Below are positions 38,996-60,526 of a DNA stretch of 64,000 nucleotides, one piece after another; position 1 is the stretch's first letter; the number at the start of each line of letters is the position of its first letter. Both the position numbers and the translations under genes were made by a program. The notes under the pieces are model-generated. The model had not been told where the DNA came from. It saw nothing but the letters and a program-made list of their open reading frames with translations, and did no database searches. Location of the stretch: IMG/VR virus record IMGVR_UViG_3300028797_000006, positions 54,403 through 118,402 of that record; one strand, written 5' to 3'. Origin of the DNA: a virus. Lineage: Duplodnaviria > Caudoviricetes.

Positions 38996-39598
38996 ACTGC
39001 CCTTTGATAATTATCTAATGCTGACCTTCGTCATACACGGCTTATTAACTGACATTATTCACACACGTTCACTAGAGTCTGAGGCAAAGGGAGCGACCCA
39101 ATGACTTCTCTAATGGCATAAAGCGATCAACGGGAACAGTTTACTTTGTTCCAACTTTCACCGAGCTTCAGAGCATATTGTATATTGATCGTAACTTTCA
39201 ACGTCGCGGTCAGATTTAACCTTATGTTAAAGCTTCTTCATTTGTCTTTCAGCTACTCGTACAGCCATATTCAGTTATAGGTTATTTCTAACCATCAAGA
39301 CACCGGTTTCCTTTGAGTGCCGGGATATTAAGTTTCTCAGGCTTAATTCCTTAGGCGAGATGCATTACTGCAGTTGCTACTTGTCACCGCTGAATTTAGG
39401 CTTTGCTTATGCGTAGTTAACACGATGCACAACCAACTACATCCTTCACTGCTTTCCCATAGTAGGTTTACCTATAAGTTTCCCGATAGGTTTCTTACTC
39501 ACAATACAGTATCCCATATTGCTTTCATTCTGTAGCTGGCTCCAGGCGGTCCGCAAGACCATCTTCACCTGGTTGCAAAGATAATTATCAAAGAACAA
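38996..39598 (-). ncRNA. large structured ncRNA, ROOL-like (~600 nt)
   Basis: Ends pair (CTTTGATAATTATCT/AGATAATTATCAAAG); own TTGACA-N17-TATAAT promoter; ORF-free and tRNA-adjacent; GGGTCGCTCCC..TCAGACT segment recalled from ROOL RNAs but not verified. Confidence 0.6.
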
Positions 39599-48475: not shown

Positions 48476-48589
48476 AGCCTTTCTACCTTCTTTCTTATAT
48501 AATTATTATACTATATAAAAAAGGCTTGTTCAAGATATTTTCCGCTCAAGCCCAAATATTTTCGCAATTCCGTCTGCCTTCCAAAATAA

Positions 48590-49925
48590 AAGGACTAGTA
48601 AGTAATTACTAGTCCAAAAGAAGGAGGAAAATGAAGAGTAAGAATTACCCTTCAAGCAGGACATTAGGTTAGGAAGGAGGTGATAAATGAAACACCTAAT
48701 GTACTGCTTGAAGGGTAGTAGGACACTTTACGACTCGAATAAGTGAGCCCACCTACTACTCTATTGTACCCATAGTCGCGCAACTATGGTCATTACTTTT
48801 TATGGAAGTGAATTATAAACTTCCATGTATTGTAATCGGGTGGCCGTTGAAGTAATGAGAACCCGCATTAGTCTATTATCCGTTTTTCGAGTGTCGTCCG
48901 TTCCTAATGAAAACCTGTCTCTGTTAGCAGTCCCTGTGCTAACACATGGTCAATAGAACTTACTCAGTCGCCACTGACTTCGACTGGGTGTACCCTGCTA
49001 GACACCATAGCTGTCGTGCTGTTCTTCCCGACATGTCAAGTAGATCGGTTCGGCTACTGCGACTTCTCTTACGGTGGAGAGTACCGGTCAATTGCGTCCC
49101 AACTAACAAGAACGATTAGGTCGTAAACCCAGTATATAAGGCCCTGCGGCTTCATACATTTACGCTACCAGCATGGTTACGAGTGAATAACGGCTCCACT
49201 AGGCGGTCGGGGTTTAATTCATAGCAGGAAGCATCCGACTTGGCTCCTGTCCTACCATCGCAAGCACGATAGGCGGTGTCTCTTTTGAACTTGCGAAGAG
49301 ATTAAGCAGGAGAGTTTTATACAGATACATACCTCTCTAACTTCTGCCTTTTACGATTAGCATCTCACGCCGTTTACGCAGTAAACGGAAACTGGATAAG
49401 ACATCATTTCTTTGGAGCTTGTCTTTTCATTTCACACCAGTAGGGGCCGGTTATTAAGTTCATTTTCTACCCTACATCTTCGCTACACCTTATCTAAATG
49501 GAGGTGCCAACCGTACTGAACATTTTACTTCGCCAGTCAGAAGGTTCGTTCTACTTACGAAGAGAGACTGTGGTCTGCTACTTCGTCATACTCCGGAAAG
49601 ACACATCGGTCGGAATGGACTTACGGGCTGTAAGGTCGCCGTGCCCTGTTCATTCAGTGGGCTCACCGAGCTCATTGTCACCAGATTGCTCACTAGGCTG
49701 GTCTAGTTAGCCATTTAGTCTATTGCTAACTTGTGTACCCATACGTTGAGGTTTCCATGGTCTACGGGTTTAACGCCGTGCCGCCGAACGTCTTACACAG
49801 GCACAACTGTGCTGCGCGGACAACAAGTTGTCCTGATGCTTTACGGACTTACTGCACATCCCAGCGGGGAGTTTGAGTTTAACGACTTCGGGGTCCAACC
49901 GTTCTGGTCAAGAGAAGACAAGAAT
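48590..49925 (-). ncRNA. giant (~1.3 kb) noncoding transcript candidate
   Basis: TTGCTA-N17-TATAAT promoter upstream; no credible ORF; 3' hairpin displaying ATCACCTCCTT; terminator GGACTAGTAA/TTACTAGTCC-TTTT. Confidence 0.6.
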
Positions 49926-50041
49926 TATCTTTCTTCTCTATATATAATTATACGATATATTGTTAAACTTAGCAAGAAATTTTTACAATATAAAGGGGAG
50001 TTTTTAGGAACTCCCCAACCTGATTTATTACTGTCTAATGA

Positions 50042-56987: not shown

Positions 56988-57836
56988 TTACATTGGTAGT
57001 TTATCTCCGAACTGGAGCTTGAGGTCCTGACAGGCTTTTACAAGGATTTGTCTGACGCGCTCTCTGGTAAGGGTTGGAGTAAGTAGCCCGCCGATTTCCT
57101 CAAGAGTGTGCTCCTCGAAATACATTTGCGGATCACCTGGTTCTCCAAGTCCAAATCTAAGTTTGAAGATTTTCTTGGTGCGGTCATCGAGACTGCCGAT
57201 AATCTTCATAGCGAGTTCGTGTTGAGCGTTTCTTTCCACATACTCGGTTGGTGTTTCGGTATGTGTGTCCTCACATAAGTCTTCAAGGGTGTTGTCCTCT
57301 TCATCGTTAATAGGTGTTGAGAGGCTGACTGTGTTTTGCTTCCAGCTCATCAAGTCATTATAGTCCTTGATATCCATACCAAGTTTCTTAGCGACTTCTT
57401 CGGAGCTTGGTTCTCTGCAGAGGTCAGCTGTGAGTTCTTCACGAGCTTTTCTTTCTTGATTAAACTTTTGAACGATATGAGCAGGGATACGGATAGGTCT
57501 GCTTTTATCAATTATGGATTTTGTGATAGCTTGTTTAATCCAAGGAACTGCGCAGGTTGAGAATCTGTAGCCAAGTGTGTAGTCATACTTTTCTACTGCG
57601 GTAATGAGTCCAGTAGTACCTTCAGCGATTAAGTCTTCTAAGCTCATATTGTTATATGAATTTTTGAAAGGCTTAGCTATTGATACAACGAGTCTAAGGT
57701 TGTGCTTAATCATTAACTGACGAGCATCTTCATCGTTCTCATCTTTGATGCGGCGACCAAGCTCGAGTTCCTCTTTTGCTGTAAGTAATCTATAACTTCC
57801 AATTTCTTTAAGATAAATTGATAGTGAATTGTCCAT
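56988..57836 (-). CDS. RpoD-like sigma-70 family RNA polymerase sigma factor
   Basis: YLKEIG..LLT, NLRLVVSIAK, DLIAEG..GL, YRFST, RPIRIPAH, TLEEIG..TRERVRQI. Confidence 0.95.
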   Translation of the reverse strand: MDNSLSIYLKEIGSYRLLTAKEELELGRRIKDENDEDARQLMIKHNLRLVVSIAKPFKNSYNNMSLEDLIAEGTTGLITAVEKYDYTLGYRFSTCAVPWIKQAITKSIIDKSRPIRIPAHIVQKFNQERKAREELTADLCREPSSEEVAKKLGMDIKDYNDLMSWKQNTVSLSTPINDEEDNTLEDLCEDTHTETPTEYVERNAQHELAMKIIGSLDDRTKKIFKLRFGLGEPGDPQMYFEEHTLEEIGGLLTPTLTRERVRQILVKACQDLKLQFGDKLPM

Positions 57837-58203: not shown

Positions 58204-58356
58204 TTAGTCCTCCTGATTACGGTGTTTACGCTTGCGGGTATATTTAGTGCGGTCGCGGAAAATATTCATACGGTTTCGTTTTTGTATGTTGAAATGAAAT
58301 TCATTACGAACCTTGGCCGGATCGACTTTAATATGGATTGTTTGCTTGTCCGCCAT
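58204..58356 (-). CDS. 50-aa basic protein, ArfA-like C-terminal motif
   Basis: MADKQTIHIK..IFRDRTKYTRKRKHR; GGAGG RBS and promoter. Confidence 0.55.
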   Translation of the reverse strand: MADKQTIHIKVDPAKVRNEFHFNIQKRNRMNIFRDRTKYTRKRKHRNQED

Positions 58357-58584
58357 AATATTTTCCTCCTTTTATTTTATATAAATATATTACACCCAGC
58401 TTCTGGGTTTGTCAATAGTTTTTTAGATTACTCCTGCTATTAGGACGTCTAAAGGGAAGATGCGGTTCAACCGGACTTATGTCGAATAAATCGACGAAAG
58501 TCGCATAAAATAATTTTAGTTAAAATTATATTTACAAAGTGCCTGCGATGTGGTATAATACCAGACGGAATAATTTTTATAAAC

Positions 58585-60200
58585 AAAAAGCACTCCATTT
58601 GGAGTGCTACGCGATCTAATGCTCATTTCTCATACCCGAGAGCTAGGGTAATTATGCGCTACCTCCCGGCAAGGAGGTTGCCCGTTATTGCCGTAACAGG
58701 ACTTCTACTATACGATAGTAGCCAACGACTGGCTGTAACGTTTGCCACCGGTGCCGCTTTCTTAGGGTTTCTTGTCGTAACCCTGCTCCGGTCTCACTAG
58801 CTGAATCCAGGGCGGTCAACTCCCCAGCGTCTTACTCAACCATCAGGTGCCTCCAGGAGGTCGACTCCTGGATTTTACGAGTCTGCTCGAAGCGCAGTTT
58901 AATGTGGTACACCCCACTGACCGATGAGGTTTTTTTAACGAGTGTTTCCCTACTCACTCGGTTGTCTCCTCTTGAGACATAGTCAAGTCGTGTATCGTTA
59001 CTACCCGGCGGCTTTACAGTGTGCCACACACTTCTGGTTTCACCGCAACCACCAGCAAGGAGTACTACGCCCGAGTCCACAGGTGTCGTCAGCACATCGT
59101 CGACCCTAGACGATTTTGTCGTCACAGGTCGTTGCTACACGGTTAGTTTTCTAGGCACTAACACTCGCCATCGGAGTTATCCTATTCTCAGCCATCGGCT
59201 CCTCAACTTGCTTTAGACAAATTGTCTGGTAAAGCGTAGCGTCCCCGGTCCTGCCGGCCCCAGCTCGCATCACAGTGGGGAAGAGTTGCAGATTACCCGT
59301 CTGCCTCTCGCTTCGGGGAGTTTAAGCCCGTGCTCGGCGAACTTCGTTCTCAGGTACGTTGCCCCGGTCTTGTGACTGCCGGTCATTGGGTTCCAGCCCA
59401 CTGCTGTTAATTAGTTGTTTTCTACAATGATGAGAGTGTAGTCTCTGGCCGACATATTCCCTCGACCCGTTGGTATGCTTTGATAATAATCGGGCGTTTA
59501 GCTCCTTAAACCCTTTGCCGGATAGATGCCGGCACCAGGACGTCCCGTTTTTATGGAGGTTGTACCCCTCGCAGCCGTCCCGACCGCAGGTCCATAGACC
59601 CCATGTGGTACTGCTTTCGTACGGCACAATGCCCGGTATCGTACCACTGAATGGATAACGTTTCCAAGCCCAGACACTCGACACGGTCTGGCGCGGCAGC
59701 CTTGCTTGCTCCATCACTGCTTAGGAGACTAACATACTATACCCCATCAGTTAGCCTAAGGGTTGCAGGCCATCAGCCTGCTGGGTACCTTGTACGGATT
59801 ACCAAACGTCCGCCAGCAGATCGATTCCCGTTTCGACGGCTTTCGCTTTCTCACCTGGTTACTGCTGGATGGGAGTTATGAGACCTCGGTGGGAGTTGCA
59901 CCCAATAGATGCTCTGTATCTACCAGACTCGTACATTTTTCGAGTCCACCGCGACCCTGCTGAGGGAGGCCATATCGTTGGAAGGAGTGGCCCGTGACGT
60001 GGGCCTTACGGCTATCTTCTTTGTTTTTTAGAGTGGAGTATACGCCTAGCAGGGAGCTGTTCCACTGGATTTTATTTGTTGGATTATTTCACTAATCTAA
60101 GGATGTGAGTAGTTTACAGACGTGCTCAGGTTGTCGCTTTCGCGTGTCCCAGTATGACGGTCTGGTTCCGTTGGCCCCGCATTTGGGCTAGAGTTTTTAA
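58585..60200 (-). ncRNA. giant (~1.6 kb) GC-rich noncoding transcript candidate
   Basis: TTGACT-N17-TATAAT at ~60228-60256; terminator AGCACTCCA/TGGAGTGCT-TTTT; dense hairpins; no ORF with RBS or phage-like codon use. Confidence 0.65.
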
Positions 60201-60262
60201 GACTTTTATCTTTGTCCTTATATAATAATTATACTCTTGTTTTCCCGTTAAGTCAAGGAGAA

Positions 60263-60526
60263 TTAGTCATTGCTGACTAATTCATAGACCTTGGCGGATT
60301 TCTTGACGGAGCCGACTTTAACGCCGTTGTAGATTACATCACAAGCGTATTCGACTTCCTCATCAGCCTTGACGATACCTTTCTTGATTAAGGTATTGAC
60401 TGAACCAGACTTGAAGTTAAAACCTTTGAAGTAGTTTAATTCAAATAAGGTTGCCTTTCCACCGTTGTCCTTTAATGCCTTACAGAAGGCAGTTTGGGTT
60501 TCATTCATTGACCATTGTTTTTCCAT
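60263..60526 (-). CDS. small wHTH-family paralogue
   Basis: W..NETQ..LK..ATL.EL..FKSGSVNTLIKKG. Confidence 0.7.
   Translation of the reverse strand: MEKQWSMNETQTAFCKALKDNGGKATLFELNYFKGFNFKSGSVNTLIKKGIVKADEEVEYACDVIYNGVKVGSVKKSAKVYELVSND

Follow-up and report, generated by a model that had tools for sequence, protein, structure and literature searches.

The locus

The genome of an uncultured phage of the class Caudoviricetes, IMG/VR record IMGVR_UViG_3300028797_000006 (hereafter G000), spans 118,402 bp, carries direct terminal repeats and has an overall guanine plus cytosine (GC) content of 35%. The right-hand 64 kb of this record form the stretch analyzed here, which we term the window and whose positions serve as coordinates throughout. 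Close to its right end, an initial annotation made from the letters alone had marked a GC-rich transcription unit of ~1.6 kb, devoid of open reading frames (ORFs), as a candidate for a giant non-coding RNA (ncRNA). Our results suggest that positions 58585-60220 constitute a single minus-strand unit specifying an ncRNA of ~1.64 kb that belongs to an uncatalogued family; to this reading, inclusive of the early expression, cleavage and joining of copies proposed further below, we assign a probability of roughly 0.6. In the 5' to 3' direction of the RNA, the features of the unit, with lengths in nucleotides (nt), are:

60256-60228, minus strand: sigma-70-type promoter with TTGACT (60256-60251), a 17-nt spacer and TATAAT (60233-60228), matching the consensus at 11 of 12 positions
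58585-60220, minus strand: predicted transcript of ~1,636 nt, with a putative start ~7 nt past the -10 box
60069-60220, minus strand: 5' leader, present in this phage only
60031-60068, minus strand: module A, a hairpin with a covarying stem and a 24-nt loop, conserved bar four variable positions, AACAnCUCCCnnCUnGGCGUAUAC
60012-60030, minus strand: A-rich single-stranded tail, UAAAAAACAAAGAAGA(G/U)AG, nearly identical in six members of the family
59879-59971, minus strand: tRNA-like element, with a 7-pair acceptor-like stem GGCCNNC/NNNGGUC, a T-arm and two inserted hairpins
59813-59878, minus strand: module B, a conserved stem CAGCAG/CUGCUG around a small covarying hairpin CCG-UCGAAA-CGG
59653-59754, minus strand: middle block, aligning more weakly to relatives than the other blocks (MAFFT columns 851-978)
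59272-59404, minus strand: domain C, a closed five-helix junction of 133 nt and the most conserved part of the RNA
59082-59206, minus strand: domain D, several covarying hairpins ending in a conserved motif, CGAUGUGCUGACGACACC
58700-58681 and 58678-58661, minus strand: two 3' hairpins, 2 nt apart, with the loops CGGCAA and UUGCCG respectively
58608-58585, minus strand: intrinsic terminator, with an 8-pair stem and a 4-nt loop followed by UUUUUGUUU

The region 58499-60198 is the strongest GC peak of the whole genome (0.52-0.56 versus 0.35 overall), in agreement with its first description as far more GC-rich than its flanks. The tRNA arrays of the phage stay below this peak, at 0.46-0.49 when averaged over 1 kb and at up to 0.53 over shorter spans. 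In the sense of the RNA, the composition is 28% A, 27% G, 24% C and 20% U. A cmscan search with all 4,227 families of Rfam 15, which took in OLE, HEARO, raiA, RNase P, tmRNA, group I and II introns, rRNA, ribozymes and riboswitches, recovered no match in the region at the gathering score, and an Rfam search of the loci of two related phages (G002 and G005, introduced below) likewise gave none. Relaxing the threshold to E<=10 brought up four matches in the region with E-values of 2-9, all far below their cut-offs and in our judgment meaningless; one of them is the Tymovirus tRNA-like model (14.7 bits), placed on the T-arm of the tRNA-like element. The Infernal/Rfam scan that had been suggested at the outset thus bears out the initial impression that no rRNA, intron, tmRNA or RNase P signature is present. 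The claimed density of GAAA loops did not hold up: GNRA tetraloops closed by a stem number 1-2 per RNA, the same as in shuffled sequence, and we rejected this as a distinguishing feature.

Relatives of the unit and the absence of a conserved reading frame

The replicative polymerase gene of the phage proved the more useful entry point for comparative analysis: with DnaE as the probe nine related contigs were obtained, and with the sigma factor encoded next to the unit no relatives were recovered. BLAST searches with the RNA region produced matches in two of the DnaE-related contigs, namely G002 (130 kb, complete) and the divergent G005. Motif scans brought in one more complete genome, G010 (115.7 kb), and four metagenome contigs, L062, L064, L119 and L148. 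Seven relatives, all of them uncultured phage or metagenome contigs, were used in the comparisons, giving eight members inclusive of the window, and in six of these (the window, G002, G010, L062, L119 and L148) the unit is full-length.

The distribution of the family appears narrow. Scanning IMG/VR for the motifs of modules A and C and of domain D added only G010, the other matches being chance occurrences without further similarity, so that the IMG/VR members are G000, G002, G010 and the divergent G005 only. In the metagenomes, at least five genuine loci were found among the 120 motif matches listed (L062, L064, L090, L119 and L148), and more members probably exist there. A blastn search of the INPHARED phages with the region gave no match. 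Among the GTDB genomes, 57 exact motif loci were rejected by a model built from domain C (model R1), which scored them at 18 bits or less versus 106-168 bits for true copies; the search for domain C in the GTDB representative genomes thus yielded no bacterial or prophage copy and no clue to the host. A related phage with 59% DnaE identity, G006, showed no equivalent RNA in the part of its genome that was examined. The text of a 2023 survey of candidate structured RNAs in IMG/VR (PMC10690425) names no similar RNA, its 8,495 unnamed candidates lying outside this comparison. As known so far, the family is limited to a small clade of uncultured phages of 115-130 kb which also possess ROOL RNAs and tRNA arrays.

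These relatives speak to the coding capacity of the region. All its ORFs are short, the longest having 131 amino acids (aa), and the longest stop-free frames of the window RNA and of five relatives lie within the range of shuffled sequences. Similarity to the relatives in tblastx is made up of pieces of 10-30 aa and favors none of the six frames, indicating conservation at the level of nucleotides rather than codons, and the insertions and deletions that separate the relatives are not multiples of three. No conserved open frame with codon-level conservation was found in the window RNA and its relatives. Hence, the description of the unit as ORF-free stands, and codon-level conservation, named at the outset as the mark of an overlooked protein, was looked for and did not emerge. 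Taken together, the GC peak, the shuffle-range frames and the lack of an Rfam match establish that the GC-rich, ORF-free and family-less stretch is real.

Direction and boundaries of transcription

The promoter begins 7 nt past the stop codon of an upstream 87-aa ORF. In all six full-length members a promoter of the form TTGAC[TC]-17-TATAAT stands directly upstream of module A, and it is the sole sense-strand promoter with at least 10 of 12 consensus matches at or inside the unit, none being internal. A hairpin with a U-run closes the unit in each of these members, at a promoter-to-terminator distance of 1.5-1.8 kb, and no internal terminator was found on the minus strand of the unit. The leader is an idiosyncrasy of G000: in L148 and G010, where it is missing, module A starts 10-25 nt past the -10 box.

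Promoter-like and terminator-like motifs are present on both strands of the region, and the initial annotation had relied on the following pair to place the unit on the opposite strand:

58531-58559, plus strand: promoter motif with 11 of 12 consensus matches and a TG extension, directed back into the 3' end of the RNA
60171-60191, plus strand: terminator-like motif, a hairpin with a 7-pair stem followed by a T-rich tail

Both motifs exist as described, and G002, L062 and L148 have weaker antisense promoters past the terminator, which lends a plus-strand transcript running from the first motif to the second some support. Nevertheless, the relatives place the conserved signals on the minus strand: G010 and L119 have nothing that corresponds to the plus-strand promoter, and the hairpin read as its terminator sits inside the 150-nt leader that is private to this phage. 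Structural features point in the same direction. Read on the plus strand, conserved G.U pairs, two in the tRNA-like element (G2.U71 in 7/7 and G5.U68 in 6/7 sequences) and one in domain C (6/7), would appear as A.C mismatches; the T-loop and the arrangement of acceptor stem and T-arm are seen in the minus-strand reading only; and the minus sense gives the better folds for domain D (-62.4 kcal/mol, versus -52.6 kcal/mol in antisense orientation) and for the 3' domain. The A- and G-rich, U-poor composition of the RNA sense and the shared orientation of the neighboring genes, the tRNAs and ROOL also favor the minus strand. Judged by this comparison of sequences, the 1.6-kb unit is read from the minus strand, opposite to the direction first annotated, and a plus-strand origin of the RNA appears scarcely credible. 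A transcription unit of ~1.6 kb had thus been correctly perceived, and a conserved promoter-to-terminator unit of ~1,636 nt is indeed present, with only its strand and boundary signals in need of replacement. The plus-strand promoter itself may drive antisense transcription, or may be a chance occurrence in AT-rich DNA.

Conserved structural elements

The tRNA-like element is present in all eight members. It combines an acceptor-type stem stacked on a T-arm, a 7-nt T-loop (UGCAACU, with U1 and A5) and a GG-containing analog of the D-loop, formed by a UGGUAG stretch at the corresponding position, features which together define a tRNA mimic; it ends in a 3' tail (C/U)CA, which is UCA in the window. 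G010 and G005 have a minimal form of 48-49 nt without an anticodon arm, and the other members have two unrelated hairpins in its place. In the respective alignment (A4), 83% of the cells pair, and the covariation score of 0.242, compared to 0.076 in shuffles, was reached by 0 of 500 of them; sliding the partner strands against each other abolishes the signal. Both partners change in the pairs 5:68 and 6:67. The block comprising the element and module B folds with z = -10.0 relative to column shuffles. A model built from the element (R2) finds one copy per RNA and recognizes genuine phage tRNAs weakly, at 16-19 bits. The cloverleaf-like junction with a T-loop-like GGGUGCAACUCCC that was noticed in the initial annotation hence exists at 59879-59971 and recurs in all the relatives, in the minus-strand reading only.

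We considered and rejected the possibility that this element is a genuine tRNA: a full cloverleaf is lacking, the anticodon arm is missing in G010 and G005, ARAGORN reported neither a tRNA nor a tmRNA for any of the members, and the element escaped the Rfam tRNA model (RF00005) both at its gathering score and at E<=10. The tRNA arrays of the phage are 12 kb away. In addition, a stretch of 36 nt on the minus strand just 3' of domain C (59235-59270, GGGGCCGGCAGGACCGG...) resembles the 5' half of the tRNA-like element of G010, in which the element comes after domain C; the recombination by which domain C was moved may have left this stretch as a scar.

Domain C shows a mean column identity of 76% in alignment A2, which comprises seven sequences inclusive of the divergent G005. 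RNAalifold predicts 37 pairs for it, nine of which have changed on both sides; its closing stem P1 covaries at 4 of 6 pairs, and its consensus fold has z = -8.5 versus column shuffles. Model R1 finds exactly one copy of it per phage (106-168 bits). The position of this copy varies: the modules follow the order A-C-tRNA-like-B in G002, G010, L062, L119 and L064, and A-tRNA-like-B...C in the window and L148; in G005, domain C comes after B in an AT-richer setting with no recognizable module A. The blocks that flank domain C are 92-96% identical between L148 and G002, implying that the move was recent, and the RNA has no internal repeats, so the differing orders are not a repeat artefact. This relocation amounts to a natural permutation experiment that shows which parts of the RNA fold on their own.

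The two 3' hairpins provide the clearest covariation. Each has 5-7 pairs, and the linker between them is 2-3 nt across members. In alignment A5, 96.8% of the cells pair and 9 of 13 stem pairs have changed on both sides, with a covariation score of 0.621 versus 0.234 in shuffles, reached by 0 of 500. The loops CGGCAA and UUGCCG are perfectly complementary and invariant, forming 6/6 pairs in all five members of this alignment. A coaxial loop-loop helix would place the bases of the hairpins ~50 Å apart, seemingly beyond the reach of a linker of 2-3 nt, which makes it more likely that the loops bridge separate molecules; by this geometric argument and by analogy, they probably join separate copies of the RNA. 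Neither hexamer is present in the ROOL RNA of the phage. In G010, the second 3' hairpin itself precedes a U-run.

The remaining blocks are supported by compensatory changes to differing extents. The stem of module A reads GUGGA/UCCAC, UGUGC/GCACA or GAGG/CCUC in different members, and its consensus fold (z = -3.4 versus column shuffles) contains 3 compensatory pairs compared to a shuffle maximum of 2. The inner hairpin of module B varies as ACG/CGU, CCG/CGG and CCG/CGG. The middle block has z = -5.1 with 12 compensatory pairs, a number equalled in 1 of 100 shuffles. Domain D, which is 75-79% identical to its counterparts in G002, G010 and L062, has z = -3.9 with 10 compensatory pairs versus a shuffle maximum of 7. 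Between the 3' end of the A-rich tail and CGACUCUC of the middle block, 37 of 40 cells can pair, with a single compensatory pair, which is weak evidence for such an interaction. A pairing of the module A loop with domain C, hinted at by a 12-nt complementarity in G010, was rejected: the variable positions of the loop mismatch the invariant strand of domain C, which is moreover already paired within that domain. No complements of the conserved single-stranded motifs were found elsewhere in the genome.

Overall architecture

Across the six conserved blocks, the consensus folds reach z-scores of -3.4 to -15.6 relative to column shuffles, and in five of the six the number of compensatory pairs exceeds that of nearly all shuffles. 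Covariation, whose absence had been named as an argument against a structured RNA, is thus evident under shuffle controls, and of the initial picture of a giant structured ncRNA dense in hairpins, the heavy folding is retained and the GAAA loops and the strand are not. When the whole alignment is folded without domain C, 63 helices with a total of 285 pairs result, of which 77 pairs are compensatory. Only two of the 63 helices are long-range, one of them an artefact of A-runs and U-runs and the other the pairing between the A-rich tail and CGACUCUC discussed above; the RNA is therefore best described as a chain of locally folded domains. Whole hairpins have been gained and lost between members, and ~60% of the window RNA aligns weakly with the other members.

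The initial annotation had left the choice between one giant RNA and a polycistron of several RNAs. The local fold, the moved domain C and the internal tRNA-like element place the RNA between the two, as a modular "train", perhaps processed, which fits these observations better than one closed global fold.

Comparison with known RNAs

Among known RNAs, the closest parallels are the large ncRNAs of phages and bacteria. Many GOLLD RNAs exceed 800 nt (PMC12286853), OLE has ~600 nt (PMC9723947), and the Rfam model of ROOL has 574 positions; at ~1.6 kb, the RNA described here is larger than all three, as initially surmised. In GOLLD, conserved loops act as intermolecular bridges and tRNAs are sometimes found within the linker, and the assemblies of ROOL, GOLLD and OLE all use intermolecular kissing loops (PMC12286853). 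With GOLLD (RF02032; PMC12286853), the 1.6-kb RNA shares the character of a very large ornate ncRNA of phages or prophages that combines a variable part with more conserved domains. Genes for tRNAs in or beside the RNA are frequent, though not universal, in GOLLD; the RNA described here has the embedded tRNA-like element, with no true tRNA in any member. In contrast to GOLLD, it is about twice as long, consists of a chain of local domains one of which changes its position, and has embedded in it a mimic rather than a tRNA. With ROOL (RF03087), it shares the same phages and the same strand, a large structured RNA in a GC-rich island of an AT-rich genome, and the lack of an evident protein partner; it differs in being ~3 times longer. 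Identity with either was rejected. The GOLLD model, which represents the conserved 3' region (cut-off 150 bits), gave no match in G000, G002 or G005 and none in the region of the RNA at E<=10, and its best score in G010 was 10.3 bits at an unrelated place. The ROOL model (gathering score 99.1 bits) matched the window only at 39002-39596 and nothing in 58300-60500 even at E<=10, and ROOL is a separate gene in G000, G002 and G010. We accordingly regard the RNA, on the strength of sequence comparisons, as the representative of a new, apparently undescribed family within the known kind of large ornate phage RNAs.

The tRNA-like element has precedents of its own. Elements shaped like tRNAs occur within longer non-coding transcripts in the species 1 and 2 RNAs of phage T4, the tRNA-like RNAs of T5 and the mascRNA of MALAT1. 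The element described here is similarly embedded but, unlike these, lacks the anticodon arm in two members and an encoded CCA, and is known from sequence alone. The tRNA-like domains of tmRNA and of bacterial Y RNAs (YrlA) consist of an acceptor stem, a T-arm and a reduced D-loop without an anticodon arm, and the acceptor stem, T-arm and reduced D-loop recur here. The element differs from them in that ARAGORN reports no tmRNA, in that both a tag reading frame and a match in Rfam are lacking, and in that its conserved G.U pair is at 2:71 and not at 3:70.

Proposed mechanism and alternative explanations

These observations suggest the following scenario: 1) The host RNA polymerase would make the RNA early in infection, since its consensus sigma-70 promoter lies in a block of small genes with similar promoters. 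2) The domains would fold independently, like beads on a string. 3) The tRNA-like element would act as a handle, addressed by RNase P at its 5' side and by RNase Z or a similar enzyme at its 3' side. The stack of acceptor stem and T-arm is the recognition unit of both RNases, and the 12-pair stack seen in the minimal forms makes a processing handle plausible. 4) The primary transcript would be cut into stable pieces at this element. 5) Separate copies of the RNA would be joined through the CGGCAA/UUGCCG loops. By analogy, the RNA is thus probably cut at the tRNA-like element, joined to other copies via the loop pair, or both. Its most likely role would, by the same analogy, be that of a stable RNA, structural or serving as a decoy, with host RNA or the translation machinery as its target during infection. 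A bolder picture, which we offer as a speculation with the odds clearly against it, is that of a giant phage RNA of 1.5-1.8 kb, about twice the length of GOLLD, whose re-orderable and independently folding domains enter a loop-linked, RNA-only assembly displaying the tRNA mimic. If true, the mimic on such an assembly could capture or distract host factors of tRNA processing, tRNA cleavage or translation early in infection.

Several points weigh against the interpretation as a minus-strand RNA of this kind. Consensus folding alone separates no strand in modules A and B and the middle block, and the minimum free energy of the single sequence has an unremarkable z of -0.3 on either strand in the promoter-proximal half (59300-60225). 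The T-stem has only three sound pairs in four members, the tRNA-like element has no encoded CCA, and the loop pair is absent from L148 and G005. The family numbers eight members, several of them close, its covariation statistics are modest, and the shuffle controls leave the phylogenetic signal in. Finally, cleavage by RNase P or RNase Z and multimerization are deduced from geometry and analogy.

How far the whole transcript acts as one entity separates the main alternatives. It might remain a single intact, unprocessed giant RNA that self-assembles into an RNA-only complex, as a larger analog of ROOL and GOLLD that displays the tRNA-like element. The single promoter and terminator without internal signals are as expected for such an RNA, as are the invariant complementary loops borne on covarying hairpins with a linker of 2-3 nt; the co-occurrence with ROOL in all three complete phages, the kissing-loop multimers of ROOL, GOLLD and OLE and the occasional tRNAs in GOLLD linkers (PMC12286853) also favor it. 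However, almost no long-range helices are supported, the shifting position of so conserved a domain as C is hard to reconcile with a fixed global architecture, this phage and the others share little conservation over ~60% of the length, and two members lack the loop pair, all of which leaves this version rather unlikely. The opposite extreme is a polycistronic precursor from which RNases release several unrelated small RNAs, the 1.6-kb unit having no function as a whole. The local fold, the tRNA-like element inside the RNA and the closed and relocated domain C speak for it, as does G005, which retains B and C in its AT-richer surroundings with no recognizable module A. The tRNA clusters of phages T4 and T5 offer a precedent, in that their stable RNAs are released by tRNA-processing and other RNases. 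Nevertheless, with one tRNA-like element per unit most domain boundaries would be left without an obvious processing signal, and the same set of modules stays together in six full-length members under one promoter and one terminator; a mere precursor is accordingly an unlikely explanation, too.

A different possibility is that the unit acts in cis, as a long leader or regulator, on the downstream genes, namely a 50-aa ORF, a 90-aa ORF and the sigma factor gene, or else that it is a decaying, functionless remnant of a tRNA array. The unit does lie upstream of the phage sigma-70 gene on the same strand, the second 3' hairpin of G010 with its U-run could in principle permit an alternative CGGCAA/UUGCCG pairing to modulate termination, and the phage has large tRNA arrays from which a remnant could derive. 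Yet the RNA is separated from the next gene by a strong terminator and by a distinct promoter that comes with a ribosome-binding site (58415-58387), the conserved sequence and covarying stems are at odds with decay, and no tRNA was detected in any member, making both variants very improbable. We therefore favor the modular minus-strand ncRNA, perhaps processed at its tRNA-like element, over these alternatives.

Genomic setting

Neighboring features of the window include:

60263-60526, minus strand: 87-aa ORF directly upstream of the RNA, without a Pfam or PHROG match
56988-57836, minus strand: complete sigma-70-family factor with regions 1.2, 2, 3 and 4, ~750 nt downstream of the RNA terminator
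39002-39596, minus strand: full-length ROOL RNA (222 bits), a separate gene ~20 kb from the 1.6-kb RNA

The phage encodes DnaE, GyrA/GyrB, a DnaB-like helicase, RecJ, an ATP-dependent ligase and the complete sigma-70-type factor. It has ~30 tRNAs, every one of them on the minus strand, and the neighboring genes, the tRNAs and ROOL all share this strand with the 1.6-kb RNA. ROOL and the 1.6-kb RNA co-occur in all three complete genomes, the ROOL copies of the relatives being at G002:69793-70386 and G010:23878-24455. The RNA is surrounded by a block of small genes with a similar promoter before each. The 50-aa and 90-aa ORFs between the RNA and the sigma factor gene have their own promoter, the one with the ribosome-binding site at 58415-58387 lying between the RNA terminator and the next gene. 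Comparison of the neighboring small proteins to PHROGs and Pfam offered no functional clue. The 87-aa ORF belongs to a family with paralogs in G002, G005, G006 and G010, at 2-4 copies per phage, and a copy stands directly before the RNA promoter in five members.

Two further observations concern other parts of these genomes. A second GC-rich patch of ~1.5 kb (48480-50040; 0.46-0.51 versus 0.35 for the genome) has no ORF of at least 50 aa on the minus (coding) strand, no Rfam match and a single 46-nt piece matching G002, and is possibly a further RNA gene that has escaped annotation. In a related phage, the early-gene region (locus L179, G006:69001-79069) contains 18 near-perfect TTGACA-N16-18-TATAAT promoters in 10 kb, several of them in tandem, ~90 nt apart, ahead of short ORFs.

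Significance

Apart from rRNA, bacteria and phages rarely have large structured RNAs. Those few that are known, namely OLE, GOLLD and ROOL, proved to form unexpected RNA-only assemblies, and the 1.6-kb RNA would constitute a further, much longer example, encoded by the same phages as ROOL. It offers several testable handles: a tRNA mimic as a possible recruiter of RNase P or RNase Z, a complementary loop pair that predicts multimerization and a highly conserved 133-nt junction domain. More generally, it strengthens the case that large phages possess a considerable amount of RNA machinery which annotation has missed.

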